Assembly (NCBI GenBank): GCA_965200875.1
Contig: OZ241456.1
Coordinates: forward strand, 1,376,001-1,440,000
Reading direction: 5' to 3'
From: Bdellovibrionales bacterium
Lineage (GTDB): Bacteria; Bdellovibrionota; Bdellovibrionia; Bdellovibrionales; UBA1609
DNA: 64,000 bases
The translations under genes and the position numbers were made by a program. The notes below the pieces were generated by a model. It was not told where the DNA came from and made no database searches. It saw only the letters and a program-made list of their open reading frames with translations. Positions 25,950 to 42,261 of the stretch are shown here, in pieces. Numbering within the stretch: position 1 is the stretch's first letter; each line of letters starts with the position of its first letter.

Positions 25950-26171
25950 CTCACTATTACCAGAAACACAAAAACAAGCAAGTGATTTTTTGCAAATTCT
26001 GATTTTAAACCAGCAATTTCTATTCTCTTATTCCGGGAGTTTTACAAAAACAAGCGACTGAAAGCCAGTTCTAACTGTTTTTTACTCACATTGGCTTTTA
26101 TTTCTTGACTTTTTACCACCCCCCGTTAGTCTTAAATGATATTTTTTTGCAAATTAACAAGGAGATTTTTT

Positions 26172-27287
26172 ATGAAACTGATGAAATTTATAATAGTGAC
26201 AGGTTTTATTTTTATTTTGAGAGAAGTTTTTTTCCAAACCAAAAACAGTCTTGTAAAGATTCCACACTGTAATAATTTTGTTCTGAAAACTACACTGGTT
26301 TTATTATTTTTAAGCTTATTTTCTTTAGGTTGTGAAAAAAAAGATGCAGGTGCTCAAACAGAAGCGGGTGCTCAAACAGAAGAAGAAGATATAAAAGTAT
26401 TGGAGGATCTAAAAGCAAAAGATTTGGAATCGATAGAAGATAATTTGAAAGATCTGGATGCTAAACTTAGCAATGAGAATTTAAAACCCGATGAGCGTCA
26501 GGAGATAGAAGGACAGAAAGAAGTATTAGAAATCGAAAGGACCGCTTTAAAAAAAATGAATATAGGTCCTTCAATGTTTGAAAGACCCACTCCTCCCCGT
26601 GCAAACACTCAACCGGAAACAGGTGCTCAAACAGAAGCAAGTACTCAACCGGAAACAGGTGCTCAAACAGAAGCGGGTGCTCAAACAGAAGCAAGTGCTC
26701 AACCGGAAACGGGTGCTCCAGTATGTAATATCGATAATTATAAAGAATATATATATAAGCCTGGCGACCATAATTGCAATTTAGCAGGTGTGAATTTTAT
26801 TAAAAGGTGGTTTTTGCTTAGGCCGAGTTTTCGCGGAGCAAATTTTCGCGGAGCAAATTTGCAAGGGGTGATTTTGACCGGGACGAATTTGATAAACGTG
26901 GATTTTACCAGAGCAAATTTGTCCGATTCGATGTTGCGCCGAGTACATGCGCTCAGTGCGAAATTTACCAATGCGAATTTAAGCAATGCAATTTTGAGCT
27001 TTGCGAATTTGTCTAGGGGGGCAAGTTTTACCGAAGCGAATTTAAGCAATGCGAATTTGTCCAATGCAAATTTGAGCGATGCGATTTTGCAAAGAGCGAA
27101 TTTGCGCAATGCAAATTTATACAGAGCAAATCTACGAAGGGCAAATTTAATCGAGGCGGATCTGCGGGGAGCGAATTTTACTAGAGCAAATTTGAGTGGA
27201 GCAAATTTTACTAGTGCGAAAGTTGATCCAGACTTGGCGACTTATTTAACCTCAAAAGATATAAGTGGTTTTGTTGTTGTAGAATAA
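26172..27287 (+). CDS. Pentapeptide-repeat lipoprotein (paralogue 1)
   Basis: Lipobox-like FSLGC, AQTEAG/TQPETG linker repeats, A(N/D)LxX pentapeptide repeats. Confidence 0.88.
   Translation: MKLMKFIIVTGFIFILREVFFQTKNSLVKIPHCNNFVLKTTLVLLFLSLFSLGCEKKDAGAQTEAGAQTEEEDIKVLEDLKAKDLESIEDNLKDLDAKLSNENLKPDERQEIEGQKEVLEIERTALKKMNIGPSMFERPTPPRANTQPETGAQTEASTQPETGAQTEAGAQTEASAQPETGAPVCNIDNYKEYIYKPGDHNCNLAGVNFIKRWFLLRPSFRGANFRGANLQGVILTGTNLINVDFTRANLSDSMLRRVHALSAKFTNANLSNAILSFANLSRGASFTEANLSNANLSNANLSDAILQRANLRNANLYRANLRRANLIEADLRGANFTRANLSGANFTSAKVDPDLATYLTSKDISGFVVVE
26605..26718 (+). repeat. 18-bp coding tandem repeat (TQPETG / AQTEAG)
   Basis: About six units such as actcaaccggaaacaggt and gctcaaacagaagcgggt. 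Confidence 0.9.
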
Positions 27288-32160: not shown

Positions 32161-34226
<2,066 letters not shown>

Positions 34227-35550: not shown

Positions 35551-37971
35551 TCATGATATATTCTTTTTTACTAAAGATAAAACAAGCAAAGCATGAATAA
35601 CACAAACAGCTATCATCCTATTAAAATTTTCGGCAGGAAAGTGCCCGTGGCAAATCATGTTTCTTATGTTCAGCCCTCTTTTGTCGACAAATAAAACCTG
35701 AAAGTAATCCGGTACACTTATGTTGTTTTTAAAAAAATTAGTAAATATAGGGTCTCTGATAAGAGCACCAAAGGGTCTTAACTCAAAGCCTTTTTCTTTA
35801 GGAGAGCAGTCAGTCTGATAGATTTGACCTCCATTAACAGCTATTAAATGTCTGATGGCTGACTCAATTTGAGGCAAAAGTATAGAACAACTTGCAATAT
35901 AGTTTTCATCAAAAAAAAGCTTTAAGCCTTCTTTAATGATCTGATGATGTGCTTCTGGAAATACAGGTGACTTAAGCAAATGTTCTGAAAGAGTATGAGC
36001 ATTAAGAGATTTTGTTTTTTGTAGATGACTTAAACCCATATCAATAAAAATACAATTATAGCTAATTTCTTGAGATATATGCTGAACAATATGTCCTTCC
36101 AAGTCATCTTTTATAGGTCCTACTTCAGCTGTTGTTCTTCCTGTATGATCCATAATCTGATGAGAGAACATAAATCTGATAGGATGTTCTTTTGCGAGTG
36201 TACAAACTGTCTCTTGAGCTTTTTTTTTATCAGGAATAAAGTTTGTGGATATGACCAATAATGCTTCAGATAGAGAGTTTTTGTCTAATTTTTTTTGAAT
36301 TTGCTCCTGTGGCAGTGGAATAGCTACCGATACAGGTTTTAGCTCTTTTAAACTTTCTTTTTGCAAGTCACGCATTCTTGGTTCCAGTTCTTTTGCCTCT
36401 TCAGATAGTCCATACTGGCGAAGTATTTGTTCCACTTTTTTTAACATAGTAGCTCCGATCATTATTGGCAAAGGGCCATGTAAAAAAGAATCCCGGTATA
36501 TGAGTAAAACTCTTTTCATGTTTTCCTGATCATTTTTATTTTTATAATAGGGTGCTAATTTTACAACGATAAGCTCAACAGAGTGCGAATCAAAGGTGTT
36601 TGGGTCTTTAGCAGAAAAACATTTTAATTTTCTTTCAAGCTCTTCTATAATTTGCTTTTCTTGTTTTTTTTCCAAGGGGATTTTCTGAAATAAATTTTTA
36701 TCTCCTATTAAAAGATCATAAGAATACCCCCATGTTCCGGCTTTATCATCTTCAGAGTGTTTTTTTTCATACTTGATAATAATATCTCTTAAATACAAAA
36801 CTCTCTCCTTGTCATCGAGAGAGATAGCCAACCTTAAAGCTCTTTCCAGTTGTTTTTGTAAATGAGAACTTTTTTGGTCAATCTCCGCTTGCTGTATGGC
36901 TGAATCAATAAACCTACGCGCAATAACTATATCTGGCTTTTTGTTTCTGATTTTTTTTGAGAAATCCCATACCAACCCGCCATATCGGTATTGGAGAATC
37001 GGACTTTTTACTTCATCAGACCTTTTTTCCCAATAGTTTATCATTTCAGGTGTAATATCTTTAATATTGGGGTTAGATATAAGGTTCCCGGTTTCTTTGT
37101 CTGTGAAGGTAACAGGAGGTACATAGTGCAAGCCTTCCCAACCAAGAGTGGCTTTATCCGGTTGCCATGTTTCTATAAGAGAAAAAGCTGTCTTTTCAAA
37201 AAATAAATGAGGTATGGATTGTAAACGATCCTCACCGGTTGTTTCTTTTATAAACTCACGAATTTTATCATTAATTATATGCTCAATTAAAAAGTCCGGG
37301 GTTGTAAGTTCATTTAAAACTGCGTACAGATCTTGCATTATTTTTCTTTGGAAAAATTGCTCGACAAAGATTTTTTTTTGCTCTTGAATTTTTTTGCCAG
37401 TGTGTTTTATTTTATCCAAGGTCATTTTGGGATATTGAAAATAATCAGCTATTTTTTTTAAAACATCCCTTCCGGTGGTTTTGTTGTTTTCTATCCGGTA
37501 GACAGTGGAAGAGGAAATATCAAATAAATTGGCAAATTCCCTTATGGAAAGGCCCAAGCTCTTTCTGAAAGATCGTAAATCTTCCGCAGAAAACTTTTTT
37601 TGCTCTTGAACTGGTTCAAATACAAAAGGGGTGATAGGGCTTTTTTTTCCGAAGGCACTTAGCAACATAAAAGGATCTTTTTCAAAAGGACTTAGGCCCA
37701 CATCACGACAGTATTCCTTATAAGCCGGATTTTTTTGGGAAGGGATCCTGTCTGCAAAAGAGGGGAAAAGTTTTAAAGAAACATGCCGTGCTTTTTTCAA
37801 AGGCAAATCCGGTCCTATAGCAATAGGGTTTTCACTATAAAGATAAGCCTTGTCATACTCAAAAACAAACTTCCCTTTTTGCCGGCTTAACCGGCCTACA
37901 TACGAACGGGTTTTGCGTCTTTCCAAATAAAAATCCAACGGTTTATATAATAATCTGTTTTTAGTTTTCAT
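35551..37971 (-). CDS. Fusion of HipA N-terminal (HipS-like) domain, XRE HTH and DUF4209/HEPN-like domain
   Basis: VGRL...FVFEY...LFPSFADRIP (HipA-N); LRSFRKSLGLSIREFANLFDISSSTVYRIE (HTH); LPQIE...GLNIRNMICHG (Rx4H). Confidence 0.78.
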   Translation of the reverse strand: MKTKNRLLYKPLDFYLERRKTRSYVGRLSRQKGKFVFEYDKAYLYSENPIAIGPDLPLKKARHVSLKLFPSFADRIPSQKNPAYKEYCRDVGLSPFEKDPFMLLSAFGKKSPITPFVFEPVQEQKKFSAEDLRSFRKSLGLSIREFANLFDISSSTVYRIENNKTTGRDVLKKIADYFQYPKMTLDKIKHTGKKIQEQKKIFVEQFFQRKIMQDLYAVLNELTTPDFLIEHIINDKIREFIKETTGEDRLQSIPHLFFEKTAFSLIETWQPDKATLGWEGLHYVPPVTFTDKETGNLISNPNIKDITPEMINYWEKRSDEVKSPILQYRYGGLVWDFSKKIRNKKPDIVIARRFIDSAIQQAEIDQKSSHLQKQLERALRLAISLDDKERVLYLRDIIIKYEKKHSEDDKAGTWGYSYDLLIGDKNLFQKIPLEKKQEKQIIEELERKLKCFSAKDPNTFDSHSVELIVVKLAPYYKNKNDQENMKRVLLIYRDSFLHGPLPIMIGATMLKKVEQILRQYGLSEEAKELEPRMRDLQKESLKELKPVSVAIPLPQEQIQKKLDKNSLSEALLVISTNFIPDKKKAQETVCTLAKEHPIRFMFSHQIMDHTGRTTAEVGPIKDDLEGHIVQHISQEISYNCIFIDMGLSHLQKTKSLNAHTLSEHLLKSPVFPEAHHQIIKEGLKLFFDENYIASCSILLPQIESAIRHLIAVNGGQIYQTDCSPKEKGFELRPFGALIRDPIFTNFFKNNISVPDYFQVLFVDKRGLNIRNMICHGHFPAENFNRMIAVCVIHALLVLSLVKKNIS

Positions 37972-38038
37972 ATTTTTAATGTTACCTTTTTGGTTCAGGC
38001 TTTTTTAATGCCACTTTTTAGTTAAAGTCTTTAACTTC

Positions 38039-39031
38039 TTAGCTGTTACCTCTTTTTTTCAGTTTTTTTAAATCTTCCAAGCGATTTTTCAAATAATTGA
38101 CAAAGGATTTTTTTCTTTTCTCTGAAATTTCAGAGAGCTTTATCTCCTCCATTAATAAGGGAAATTGACGAATAACTTTTTTAGCAAACTTCAAACAAGC
38201 TGTTTCTAAATTTAACCTTTTAAATTCTTTCAGATAATCATTGGTCTTTGGTTCTTTTGAGTTAGAGGTCCAAATATAACCACTAAAGTTAAACTGGGGG
38301 CCCAGCATTTTTTCATCTTGCACTCCAAAATTAGAGGGATTATCATACATGGGAGCAAGCTGTCTTTTTTTGCCAGTGTCTATGATGCCTAAATTTCTAC
38401 CATGCCGATCTCCATTTCCAATAAAGGAATCAAAAAGGCAGATTTCTACAAATGTTTCCACATCTCTTAATCTGCTTGTTTTCTCTTGGATAACCTTTAT
38501 TAAGGTTTCACAATTATAATGGCTTTTAGGTACATATTTATAGAGATGGTGTAAGCTTCCAACAGTACCTTGCATAAAATTTTTAGTGACAAAAGTTATC
38601 AGCTTCTCTGACTCTTGTTCTTCTTTATTCATTTTAGTAGTCGTAGCTTTATTTTTTGTATTGCTCTCATCTGAAAACAGGATTAAATAATATTCCGGCA
38701 CCTTCAAATTCAGAAGAGAGGCTATCTGATTACAAAGATATTCCATAGCTGGCAAGTCAGGAAACCCTGGTTCCTCAACTTTTAAGATGTATTGTTGGTC
38801 TCCAAGTTTGGCTGAATATTTGCGATATCGACCATGATAAAAACTGTCTTTATTTGTTGTGAATGTGGCAGAATGAGAAGAGGAGTAAGATGTTGTTTTT
38901 TTGAAATCCAGGTCATAAAATTCAGACGAATCCTGTACAGCAAACCACTTTTGAAAGCAGTCTGTATGTAGACCATAAATACTTTGATGTTCAATGGATT
39001 TATGGCATTTAAAACATTTGTGTTTTTTCAT
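38039..39031 (-). CDS. HipA/HipT-like Ser/Thr kinase
   Basis: N-terminal CxxC...HxxC, YILK, EYLC, FDSFIGNGDRHGRN and LAPMYD motifs. Confidence 0.88.
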   Translation of the reverse strand: MKKHKCFKCHKSIEHQSIYGLHTDCFQKWFAVQDSSEFYDLDFKKTTSYSSSHSATFTTNKDSFYHGRYRKYSAKLGDQQYILKVEEPGFPDLPAMEYLCNQIASLLNLKVPEYYLILFSDESNTKNKATTTKMNKEEQESEKLITFVTKNFMQGTVGSLHHLYKYVPKSHYNCETLIKVIQEKTSRLRDVETFVEICLFDSFIGNGDRHGRNLGIIDTGKKRQLAPMYDNPSNFGVQDEKMLGPQFNFSGYIWTSNSKEPKTNDYLKEFKRLNLETACLKFAKKVIRQFPLLMEEIKLSEISEKRKKSFVNYLKNRLEDLKKLKKRGNS

Positions 39032-39033
39032 AA

Positions 39034-39078
39034 TGTAGTCAATATACTACAAAATTATTTTGTAGTCAAATGACTATA
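39034..39078 (-). promoter_or_regulatory. Sigma-70 promoter overlapped by two 18-bp palindromic operators
   Basis: Minus strand TTGACT-N17-TATATT (39069-39041); operators TGTAGTCAATATACTACA (39034-39051) and TGTAGTCAAATGACTATA (39061-39078). Confidence 0.8.
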
Positions 39079-39284
39079 AATTTTTAAAGTAAGGACAAAA
39101 ATCAAGAATAATGGCCTTTATTCAAAGTTTTTTTCCAAAGTTTCAGATTAGAGAAGGTTTATAGAACATTGGTATTGAGATAAATACTGTCACATTTTTA
39201 ATAAAAACTTAATAAAAATGCGGTAAAGCTTGATTTGCTATTATTGACTTGTGAACCATTTTTCTTTATTCTGGATAAGTATAA

Positions 39285-39975: not shown

Positions 39976-40878
39976 TTAATCTACAACAACAAAACCGCTT
40001 ATCTCTTGTGAGATTAAATAATTCTGTTGTAGTTCTGTGACTTTCGCATCGGTAAAATTCGCCTTGCTCAAATAACGAGCCTTTTGCAAATGCCTCACAT
40101 GACGCAGATCCGCCTCAGTCAAATTCGCATTGGTAAAATCCGCCCCATTTAAATTCGCGTAACGCATATCTGCCCCAGTCAAATTCGCATTATTCAAATT
40201 CGCTTGCTGCAAAATTGCATTGAACAAATTCGCTTGTTGCAAATTCGTATGGCTCAAATTTGCCTCGTGAAACCTTGTATTGTGCAAATCCGCTTCACGC
40301 AAAATTGCATAGCTCAAATTCGCCTCGCGCAAAAATGACCCGCTTAAATTCGCTTCGGCTAAATTCGCTCCAACCAAATTCGCATTACGCAAATCCACAC
40401 TGTATAAATACGCCTGAGATAGGTTGCAATTATGGACACCTGGTTGCTTTATATATTCTTTATAATTATCGACATTACAGACTGGAGCACCAGTGCCAGC
40501 TGGAGTACTTGCGCCCGGTTGAGTACCTGCACCTGCTGGGTTAGTCCCTGCTTCTGGGTGAGTGCCTGCTTCTGGGTGAGTGCCTGCTTCTGGGTTAGTC
40601 CCTGCTTCTGGTTGAGTGCCTGCTTCTGGGTTAGTCCCTGTTTCCGTTGAACCACCTGCACCCGTGGGAGTACTAGCATCTGGTTTAGCATTTGCGCCGG
40701 TTGAACCTGCATCTTTTTTTTCACAACCTAAAGAAAATAAGCTTAAAAATAATAAAACCAGTATAGTTTTCAGAACAAAATTATTAAAGTGTGGAATCTT
40801 TATAAGACTGTTTTTGGTTTGGATAAAAGCTTCTCTCCAAATAAAATCTGTCACTATTATAAATTTCATCAGTTTCAT
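39976..40878 (-). CDS. Pentapeptide-repeat lipoprotein (paralogue 2)
   Basis: Nearly the same N-terminus as 26172, TNPEAG repeats, pentapeptide repeats, shared ISGFVVV C-terminus. Confidence 0.88.
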   Translation of the reverse strand: MKLMKFIIVTDFIWREAFIQTKNSLIKIPHFNNFVLKTILVLLFLSLFSLGCEKKDAGSTGANAKPDASTPTGAGGSTETGTNPEAGTQPEAGTNPEAGTHPEAGTHPEAGTNPAGAGTQPGASTPAGTGAPVCNVDNYKEYIKQPGVHNCNLSQAYLYSVDLRNANLVGANLAEANLSGSFLREANLSYAILREADLHNTRFHEANLSHTNLQQANLFNAILQQANLNNANLTGADMRYANLNGADFTNANLTEADLRHVRHLQKARYLSKANFTDAKVTELQQNYLISQEISGFVVVD

Positions 40879-41142: not shown

Positions 41143-41442
41143 TTAAGAATTGTTTTTCAGCTTTTTGATCTCCTCTTCAGAAAGACCTGTCATCTCAGAA
41201 ATAAAAGAAAGCTTTAATTTGCTTTTTAGCATATTAAGTACCACTTCCTGACGACCTTCCTGATGACCTTCTTGACGACCTTCCTGTCGACCTTTCTGCA
41301 TGCCTTCTTGCATACCCTCTTGTAAACCTTCCTGACGACCCTTTTGCATACCTTCTTGTATTCCTTTTTGCATACCTTCTCTTAGACCTTTCTGCATGCC
41401 TTCTTGTATGCCCACTAATTTAATCTCTTCTCTTATGTCCAT
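41143..41442 (-). CDS. Putative intragenic small Rpn product (99 aa, antitoxin-like)
   Basis: In-frame ATG at 41442 preceded by aagAGGAGGttat. Confidence 0.65.
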   Translation of the reverse strand: MDIREEIKLVGIQEGMQKGLREGMQKGIQEGMQKGRQEGLQEGMQEGMQKGRQEGRQEGHQEGRQEVVLNMLKSKLKLSFISEMTGLSEEEIKKLKNNS

Positions 41443-42261
41443 ATAACCTCCTCTTTTTAATAAACTTCTTTCTATGGCCAACTGCTCAACTCTTTTCCAT
41501 AATTCAACACTCACTCCACCCGCTGACTTCAAATAATCCACTGCACTTAATATCAAATCCTCTCGCTTTCCCGAAAAAACTGAAAACGCAGACACAAACT
41601 CCAACAACTCCGGCACACTCTTCTTTAAAAACCATATCTTGCTTAACAATGCTAATGCTCCACGGCTTTGAATGTTTGGATCCTTTAAAGCTTTTTGAAC
41701 TTGTGGATCATGGGTGTCCAACAACTTTAACTTGTAATCTAACATACTTTTACGAAAGGAAACAGGAATTTTATTAAAAAACAGTCCAAAAATGGCTTCC
41801 TGAAAAGAAATAGGCCAGCTCCAAGGCTTTTTTCCATGATAAAACACAATGGGAATAACAGCTATAATGTTGTCTGACTTCCGTTCATAGAGAAGAGTCT
41901 GATAGGATAACACCTGCCGGAAGAGATTTTTATTGTAAGAGGACTTGTGTTCCAGAAGGATACAGAACTGAAACTTGGCAGAAGGGTTGTCTTTAAGAGC
42001 GACTGTAAAAACTAAGTCTGCCCTTTTATCTTTTAAACTGTCTTTTTCCACTTTTAAAGTATCCCAGTCGCAGGCTGAAAATTCTTCTGGAGATAAGACC
42101 AGTTTAAAGATCTCTTTGGCAAATGCAATTTCTGAAAAAAATCTTTTAAAGAATCTATCGTGCAAGTTATCCAAAGTTTTGCCTGTAGACACTGCTATTA
42201 TTTTTTTCGCCTTTGATTTTTTCAATAATTTTTTTTGCACTTTAACTGTTTGTTTCGTCAT
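41143..42261 (-). CDS. Rpn family recombination-promoting nuclease / putative transposase (PD-(D/E)XK)
   Basis: HDRFFK, ADLVF, LLEHKS, PIVFYHG motifs; C-terminal G(M/R)Q(E/K)G repeats and TGLSEEEI. Confidence 0.93.
   Translation of the reverse strand: MTKQTVKVQKKLLKKSKAKKIIAVSTGKTLDNLHDRFFKRFFSEIAFAKEIFKLVLSPEEFSACDWDTLKVEKDSLKDKRADLVFTVALKDNPSAKFQFCILLEHKSSYNKNLFRQVLSYQTLLYERKSDNIIAVIPIVFYHGKKPWSWPISFQEAIFGLFFNKIPVSFRKSMLDYKLKLLDTHDPQVQKALKDPNIQSRGALALLSKIWFLKKSVPELLEFVSAFSVFSGKREDLILSAVDYLKSAGGVSVELWKRVEQLAIERSLLKRGGYMDIREEIKLVGIQEGMQKGLREGMQKGIQEGMQKGRQEGLQEGMQEGMQKGRQEGRQEGHQEGRQEVVLNMLKSKLKLSFISEMTGLSEEEIKKLKNNS

Follow-up and report, generated by a model that had tools for sequence, protein, structure and literature searches.

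Hip kinases are textbook persistence toxins, and their natural role is debated. We asked what such a kinase might be doing beside a partner that carries, in one polypeptide, a HipS-type antitoxin domain, a helix-turn-helix (HTH) and an entire putative RNase of the HEPN type. The arrangement occurs in a 64,000-nucleotide stretch of DNA from a Bdellovibrionales bacterium (GenBank assembly GCA_965200875.1, contig OZ241456.1, positions 1,376,001 to 1,440,000), all of which was analysed and is hereafter the window. It consists of two minus-strand open reading frames (ORFs) separated by 67 nt, with the kinase first. Because the slot behind HipS-HTH holds an Avs8-like STAND protein, a SIR2 domain or nothing in relatives, the Hip pair resembles a common chassis that can take several exchangeable modules, of which the HEPN protein would be one. 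The two genes and the parts of the partner are as follows.

38039..39031 (-), HipT-like Ser/Thr kinase gene (330 amino acids; HipA_C only; Pfam HipA_C, PADLOC PDC-M03A), predicted toxin
35551..37971 (-), partner gene (806 amino acids) encoding HipS, an HTH and a whole DUF4209/PDC-S39 protein
37642..37905 (-), HipS-like domain (Couple_hipA, residues 23-110; Pfam E 2.8e-9), predicted kinase-neutralising part
37429..37578 (-), XRE-type HTH (residues 132-181; Pfam HTH_3 E 1.5e-9), predicted autorepressor
37336..37338 (-), M212 codon at the fusion junction, aligned with the initiator Met of stand-alone DUF4209 proteins
36010..37326 (-), helical-repeat (TPR-like) region, residues 216-654 (AF2 model), predicted sensor or scaffold
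35554..36009 (-), HEPN domain, modelled over residues 655-806 (AF2, VIA-align; Pfam DUF4209 at 702-796)
35647..35664 (-), R770-NMIC-H775, the HEPN Rx4H motif, with R, N and H invariant

We assessed whether the fusion is genuine by a word-indexed homologue search with the partner, which returned 45 proteins. Four of these combine HipS, HTH and DUF4209, namely the window protein itself (P0002), P0003 (809 amino acids, 66% identity, 99% coverage), P0004 (801 amino acids, 65% identity) and P0007 (494 amino acids); identity of the latter three to the window partner was 62-66%. DUF4209 occurred without HipS in 37 of the 45, most of them 570-650 amino acids long and 45-55% identical, and the remainder comprised one protein without a precomputed Pfam domain and three HipS(-HTH) proteins without DUF4209. 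Stand-alone HipS-HTH proteins finish at ...FFxSQIxK(Q), 0-4 residues before M212 (alignment A5), and stand-alone DUF4209 proteins begin with MxxxLYxILNEF, which aligns with M212-QDLYAVLNEL of the window partner. The end of one protein is therefore joined directly to the start of the other. The position of M212 reads V-T-E in P0003, P0004 and P0007, so that Met is not conserved there, and the residue is probably a relic start codon, to judge from the alignment.

The sequence at the junction recurs in contigs from public sequencing runs. One contig from run X1 (4825 nt) spans 35551-38750 and one from run X2 (554 nt) spans 36997-37550 across the junction, each with 0 differences, although both runs come from one sample that may be the assembly's own source. 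Sequence data of a second study contain the kinase gene in identical form, and in a third, a sponge metagenome, a near relative is present as separate pieces, none of which bridges the junction. The runs listed for the locus included no RNA data set. An assembly artefact or a lost stop codon is ruled out by P0003, P0004 and P0007 together with the junction-bridging contigs. A scan of metagenome contigs gave a single short match (L056), of unrelated length, and a scan of viral contigs with the HipS-HTH alignment gave no relative; the HipS-HTH part was likewise found in no phage record and in no plasmid record (24 plasmid records, all of which match query residues >= 230 only). An earlier note on this DNA, made from the sequence alone, had pointed to a Met at the junction (37338) and had allowed that the fusion might be unique to this assembly. 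The Met is there, encoded by 37338-37336 and aligned with the start of stand-alone DUF4209 proteins, and the three homologues place the fusion in other genomes as well.

To see which C-termini accompany the Hip core, 384 genomes of the order were searched with partner residues 1-215. Matches at E <= 1e-30 were found at 45 places in 43 genomes; 12 of the 45 lay in open frames of at least 400 amino acids, all 12 in two genera of the window's family, and the other matches lay in frames of 132-281 amino acids. In an evenly drawn sample of 401 genomes from the phylum, 30 matched at E <= 1e-10, and the 29 besides the window's own were all in frames of 158-287 amino acids. We then compared 20 related loci (19 fetched regions and L001, with the window not counted among them). 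An intact kinase gene lay directly upstream of HipS-HTH in 17 of the 20, mostly with an overlap of a few bases, the exceptions being a contig end (L048), a 95-amino-acid kinase remnant (L051) and a kinase split into two ORFs (L047). Behind this shared core the partner stopped after about 210 amino acids in 8/20 loci, ran into a 1300-1600-amino-acid PADLOC PD-Lambda-4_A (Avs8-like STAND) protein in 10/20, ran into DUF4209 in one, and was decayed in one (L047). The DUF4209 case (L038), with an intact kinase directly upstream, encodes the 494-amino-acid P0007, which lacks about 290 amino acids of the repeat region. PD-lambda-4 has been renamed Avs8; this STAND NTPase carries an Mrr nuclease domain and responds to major capsid proteins.

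Where these loci decay, they do so unevenly: a broken kinase beside an intact HipS-HTH was seen in 2/20 loci and the reverse in 0/20 (small numbers), an asymmetry that is toxin-like. At L051:2461-7797 (G299), a 1680-amino-acid HipS-HTH-Avs8-like ORF is open beside the N-terminal kinase remnant. At L047:1958-5863 (G357), HipS-HTH is intact, the STAND part has broken into three short pieces, and 2 kb further on there is a second fragment of HipS-HTH. Paralogous Hip pairs occur twice in genome G351: L037 bears an Avs8-like fusion and L038 the shortened DUF4209 fusion.

Of 1.84 billion representatives searched exhaustively by HMMER with the 215-amino-acid module, only 254 reached E <= 1e-3, and 75 reached E <= 1e-30. 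When the C-terminal extensions of the 50 proteins of at least 330 amino acids were clustered, 12 were Avs8-like, 11 unannotated, 6 multi-HTH (these are not HipS fusions) and 4 DUF4209, with further clusters of 3, 2 and 2 members and 10 singletons. Beyond HipS and HTH, Pfam recognised only ankyrin repeats, in one of 38 long representatives, and PADLOC, run on 35 long representatives, matched PD-Lambda-4_A in 10, SIR2 in one (P0114, E 1e-8) and an ankyrin-type candidate in one. Individual proteins thus joined HipS(-HTH) to a SIR2-like domain (P0114) or to ankyrin repeats (P0122). The unannotated extension, of 270-430 amino acids, is common to 11 representatives (including P0046, P0067, P0069, P0075, P0078, P0079, P0081, P0084, P0105 and P0113), and that of P0069 matched unnamed clusters only in the ESM Atlas.

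Trees were built for the two halves. On the HipS-HTH tree (31 rows), four STAND-fused rows share a starred clade (100/99) with the window, a second starred clade holds the three remaining DUF4209-fused rows, and the C-terminal label requires 6 changes. On the tree of the DUF4209 part (38 rows, built by a quick method, 35 of them stand-alone), the three full-length fused rows group in one starred clade (SH-aLRT 100); P0007, which is not in alignment A1, was left out. A single fused DUF4209 clade, set against the label changes on the HipS-HTH tree, therefore indicates that DUF4209 was captured once and that modules were exchanged at the junction afterwards.

The kinase itself carries three conserved features.

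38342..38410 (-), catalytic D208-RHGR-N213 and Mg-binding A226-PMY-D230, invariant in 18/18 kinases
38810..38842 (-), loop F64-YHGRYRKYS-A74, with Ser73, at the position of the Hip Gly-rich loop (18-kinase alignment)
38957..39016 (-), C6-x2-C9 ... H22-x2-C25 motif at the N-terminus, all four residues invariant in 18/18

Pfam HipA_C scored 69.4 bits against a cut-off of 30.5 (E 4.6e-19, residues 74-249), and PADLOC PDC-M03A matched over profile positions 50-268 of 280 (E 1.1e-18). The closest solved chain is Legionella pneumophila HipT (8ezr/7vkb, E 4e-6), in which GNEDMHLKN aligns with GNGDRHGRN of the window kinase and SPAYD with APMYD. Couple_hipA was absent from the kinase in the Pfam scan and was found in the partner only. 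Within the loop, F64, H66, G67, K71, Y72, S73 and A74 are invariant in 18/18 kinases; we infer from position and pattern that it is the equivalent of the Hip Gly-rich loop. The N-terminal C6/C9/H22/C25 motif may be a zinc finger, and a variable insert follows residue ~120 in the same alignment.

In the partner, Couple_hipA, HTH_3 and DUF4209 all exceed their Pfam cut-offs. The HipS part matches PADLOC PDC-M03B over profile positions 20-105 of 245 only, and it retains every one of the 9 columns in which 41 HipS-HTH sequences do not vary. Both PADLOC PDC-S39 profiles match partner residues 284-788 (PDLC05011 over positions 62-567 of 595, E 7.2e-34; PDLC05012, E 7.7e-37). In PADLOC, PDC stands for phage-defence candidate. 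The C-terminal ~595 residues are, on this sequence evidence, a complete and otherwise stand-alone single-gene defence candidate (PDC-S39). An AF2 model of the 591-amino-acid C-terminal protein reached a pLDDT of 89, and its first ~330 residues gave generic TPR/solenoid matches only (Foldseek, VIA).

The model of residues 655-806 (pLDDT 86, pTM 0.81) resembled HEPN proteins, which made up most of the best VIA-align rows at Z 5-7.2: AbiA (Z 7.2, root-mean-square deviation 3.9, 112 aligned), Csm6 (Z 7.0) and 4nqf (Z 6.6), followed by HEPN toxins, sacsin, RnlA, AbiV and LsoA. Foldseek returned no match at E <= 1e-3 for these residues, its best rows being RnlA and small HEPN proteins. These structural matches of a model are supportive rather than decisive. 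A profile search of Protein Data Bank sequences found nothing at E < 0.39, and the ESM Atlas gave weak leads only (DUF7380/DUF4209 clusters, scores <= 0.84). R770, N771 and H775 are invariant in 38/38 and in 40/40 aligned sequences (two alignments). Anantharaman 2013 placed DUF4209, of the C6orf70 family, among the HEPN families, predicted it to be active and reported it from operons related to restriction-modification; the HEPN part of the window protein is a putative RNase.

Much of what the earlier note had read from the letters held up. The kinase gene comes first, and its DRHxxN, APxYD and FYHGRYRK are all present in the ORF at 38039-39031 (-); the junction of a HipS-HTH part of ~210 amino acids with a HEPN-bearing protein of ~595 is borne out by Pfam, PADLOC and the motif in 40/40 sequences. 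The profile search that it had proposed matched the kinase to PDC-M03A, HipS to a part of PDC-M03B and the C-terminal part to PDC-S39. The RNMICHG string with which it had ended the protein exists, but it is not terminal: the distance to the C-terminus is 31 residues. Of the restriction-modification and Rpn surroundings that it had described, a truncated methyltransferase and an Rpn-like gene were recovered, but a restriction enzyme was not found.

Among the related loci, conservation is striking over the 90 nt that precede the kinase ATG. Two inverted repeats lie here.

39061-39078 (-), TGTAGT-N6-ACTACA site, predicted operator, at -47 from the kinase ATG
39034-39051 (-), TGTAGT-N6-ACTACA site, predicted operator, at -20 from the kinase ATG

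With <= 2 mismatches, such a site occurs within 120 nt upstream of the kinase in 17/18 loci, usually twice and at -47 and -20; in simple letter shuffles of the same upstream stretches (500 trials), it turned up in 0.12 loci on average and in 3/18 at most. In the 64-kb window these two are the only sites with <= 1 mismatch. A palindrome bridging them, ACTACAAAATAATTTTGTAGT at 39046-39066, is unique in the 1.87-Mb genome (2 contigs). The sites overlap a promoter-like layout, TTGACT-17 nt-TATATT, which ends ~10 nt before the kinase ATG, and the operator layout is identical whichever C-terminal module follows. Such a layout fits autorepression by a dimeric HTH, which would bind there. At 39032-39090 (-), no Shine-Dalgarno sequence was seen between TATATT and the kinase ATG, and the kinase mRNA may be leaderless or nearly so.

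Individually, the parts are all of known kinds, and a HipS domain with an extra domain has a precedent in HipN. One close parallel is HipBST of Escherichia coli O127 and L. pneumophila, in which the kinase likewise lacks N-subdomain 1, the HipS-type domain is encoded separately and there is an HTH component. HipS positions itself at the Gly-rich loop and thereby neutralises HipT, the repressor is HipB, and Hip kinases autophosphorylate (eLife 2023). However, HipBST consists of three separate genes (hipB-hipS-hipT), whereas here there are two with the kinase first, HipS and HTH share a polypeptide that continues into a 595-amino-acid HEPN protein, and the kinase has the N-terminal CxxC..HxxC motif and an unusual loop. 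Kinase-first operons are known from hipJS and hipIN (Gerdes et al. 2021, mBio), and the same order is found here and in 17/20 related loci. The hipJS partner is HipS only and the hipIN partner is HipS with a C-terminal HIRAN domain, which has been proposed as a phage-DNA sensor (Gerdes et al. 2021); the window partner instead has an HTH and DUF4209, the extra part being helical repeats and HEPN. HIRAN had no match among the Pfam hits at E <= 1.

Defence-related proteins offer further comparisons. Stand-alone PDC-S39/DUF4209 (C6orf70-type) proteins from the same genus, of ~600 amino acids and 45-55% identical, keep RNxxxH, but are encoded by a gene of their own, whereas here the protein forms the C-terminal part of a Hip partner. 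In the two-gene PDC-M03, the A profile is matched by the kinase and the B profile only over ~20-105 of 245, the rest of the window partner being HTH and PDC-S39. Avs8/PD-lambda-4 occupies the same C-terminal slot on HipS-HTH in 10/20 related loci, although not in the window; it is an unrelated type of protein (reported to combine Mrr nuclease, NTPase and sensor), and the window protein has no NTPase. CapRel has been reported as a fused toxin-antitoxin (TA) defence protein, and DS-6/HipAD as a HipA-family kinase system whose protection against phage depends on the catalytic residue (DefensePredictor). Each of the two controls a toxin in phage defence through an antitoxin part to which extra domains are physically attached, so that the window locus would work like them without being a member: the CapRel toxin family differs, the DS-6B partner domains are DUF3037/DUF1829, and neither has HipS, HTH or HEPN. 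Our literature search found no description of a HipS or HipS-HTH fusion to HEPN, STAND or SIR2 modules, and the accessible text of Gerdes 2021 contains none of the words 'fused', 'fusion' or 'HEPN', although its supplementary tables could list such partners.

Outside the fusion, some DUF4209 genes keep company with defence genes. Stand-alone copies at five loci (L002, L003, L004, L058, L059) have no Hip genes within 5-6 kb; one adjoins a CD-NTase-like gene (L002) and another adjoins TIR and DUF4145 genes (L003). A split three-gene Hip system with DUF4209 as a separate component was rejected on this absence at the five loci, and also because the DUF4209 gene lies > 100 kb from the Hip pair in G348 and G352. 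Relatives of DUF4209 are present on 24 plasmid records, and the P2-like phage vB_EcoM-569R9 (Peduovirus, ON470601.1) encodes a DUF4209 protein between gpA and gpQ (L060:2499-4430), a locus described as a defence hotspot of P2-like phages (Rousset et al. 2022). Another graft on this HEPN family is seen in P0040 (1121 amino acids), one of the 37 homologues that have DUF4209 without HipS; it bears a Fic/SoFic-like domain on the DUF4209 N-terminus. A literature search found no paper testing DUF4209, PDC-S39 or PDC-M03. A defence role of the locus is plausible.

The surroundings of the operon are as follows. Directly after purF, at 33606-34226 (+), lies a remnant of a type II DNA methyltransferase gene, its C-terminal part only, covering positions 141-285 of 319 of its PADLOC profile and 80-217 of 221 of Pfam N6_N4_Mtase. 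A YhgA/Rpn-like gene is at 41143-42261, and relatives of it adjoin L001 and L051. Pentapeptide-repeat proteins flank the region at 26136-27287 (+) and 39976-40878 (-). Small flanking ORFs were considered as extra components and discarded, having no Pfam or PADLOC match and not being shared with related loci.

How, then, might the two genes work? The reading that we favour, at about even odds, is that they form a two-gene, TA-style anti-phage operon acting by abortive infection. In such an operon the HipS domain would bind and block the kinase, as HipS does HipT in HipBST, and an HTH dimer would bind the two promoter sites and autorepress the operon. The helical-repeat part would sense an infection cue; sensing would activate the HEPN RNase, which would cut RNA, and would free the kinase to phosphorylate an essential translation factor, for example an aminoacyl-tRNA synthetase. 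One sensor would lead to two growth-arresting outputs. More tentatively, HipS-HTH may be a portable adaptor through which a Hip kinase toxin is coupled to immune receptors of unrelated types (TPR-HEPN, Avs8-like STAND, SIR2 and unannotated ones), with one sensing event firing two effectors and the junction serving as a recombination point at which whole immune proteins are swapped. If true, this would be a bacterial principle of receptor-kinase coupling, and its pairing of kinase and HEPN would recall RNase L and Ire1. The mutual restraint of kinase and RNase that the earlier note had suggested would be a special case; the comparative data point elsewhere, to a chassis with exchangeable modules.

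Several observations weigh against the abortive-infection operon. Binding of HipS to the kinase is something we infer from homology, and the HipS domain could not be detected by sequence against solved HipS chains. The kinase loop FYHGRYRKYS, although conserved, is atypical beside canonical Gly-rich loops. The generic repeat matches give the helical-repeat region no sign of sensing, and the HEPN fold match is middling, with VIA-align Z below 8 and the Foldseek rows short of E 1e-3. Each of the two appended module types brings an effector of its own, so that a need for the kinase is not obvious, and L051 keeps its STAND fusion without one. PDC-S39 and PDC-M03 are themselves candidates only, and the fusion is absent from the phage and plasmid records searched.

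Some of the same observations suit other explanations. The HEPN or STAND protein could be a self-sufficient immune protein and the Hip pair its dead-man's switch: with the antitoxin built into the immune protein, degradation, inhibition or shut-off driven by a phage would free the kinase, and no joint sensing would be involved. That each appended module is a whole defence protein equipped with an effector, that stand-alone DUF4209 proteins occur without Hip genes, that the fusion runs seamlessly from end to start with no linker domain and that L051 lost its kinase and kept the STAND fusion all agree with such a back-up. However, it leaves the commonest form, the bare kinase/HipS-HTH pair (8/20 loci; all 29 other phylum-sample matches), unexplained, and no anti-defence target is known; we regard it as unlikely. 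The seamless junction, exactly from one protein's end to the other's start Met, would equally be expected if read-through or a deletion had joined neighbouring defence genes by chance, leaving the halves to work separately and the fusion neutral, perhaps under a shared autoregulated promoter. Defence genes often cluster and recombine, and P0007 at L038 tolerates the loss of about 290 amino acids of the repeat region. Yet 4 proteins that have diverged by about 35% in amino-acid sequence all keep the fused frame open, fused forms make up 12/45 of the strong HipS-HTH places in the order, the slot has been filled by at least three unrelated module types through repeated exchange, and the catalytic residues of both halves are invariant, which makes a neutral accident quite improbable.

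Two further accounts change the role of the kinase or of the operon as a whole. The kinase could be a regulator that gates the HEPN RNase by phosphorylating either its partner or itself, loosely like Ire1 and RNase L; eukaryotic kinase-HEPN fusions exist (Anantharaman 2013), Ser73 is invariant beside the loop, and Hip kinases are reported to autophosphorylate (eLife 2023). We consider this very unlikely, since the same kinase family pairs with effector-less partners in 8/20 loci, the decay pattern fits a toxin, and the characterised Hip kinases in Gerdes 2021 and eLife 2023 are toxins. Hardly any weight is given to a plain TA or addiction module that stabilises a variable genomic island and plays no part against phage. 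Hip modules are classical TA systems (Gerdes 2021), and the stretch around this one is low in GC (0.31-0.35) and includes a gene remnant and an Rpn-like gene; however, the fused modules are of defence type (HEPN, Avs8-like STAND, SIR2), a DUF4209 protein occupies the P2 defence hotspot, and both halves match PADLOC defence-candidate profiles.

The locus and its relatives are natural evidence that complete immune proteins, of at least three kinds unrelated to each other, bear the HipS-HTH antidote and repressor as a handle at the N-terminus, and among close relatives these modules have been exchanged. Phage defence by a HipA-family kinase has been reported only recently, for DS-6/HipAD. If the coupling is functional, it would suggest how TA toxins are wired to dedicated phage sensors, and the loci would constitute natural chimeras, with the same kinase chassis and different sensors, for studying trigger specificity. 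It would also, if true, offer a first way into the function of DUF4209, a HEPN family whose conservation extends to eukaryotes (Anantharaman 2013).

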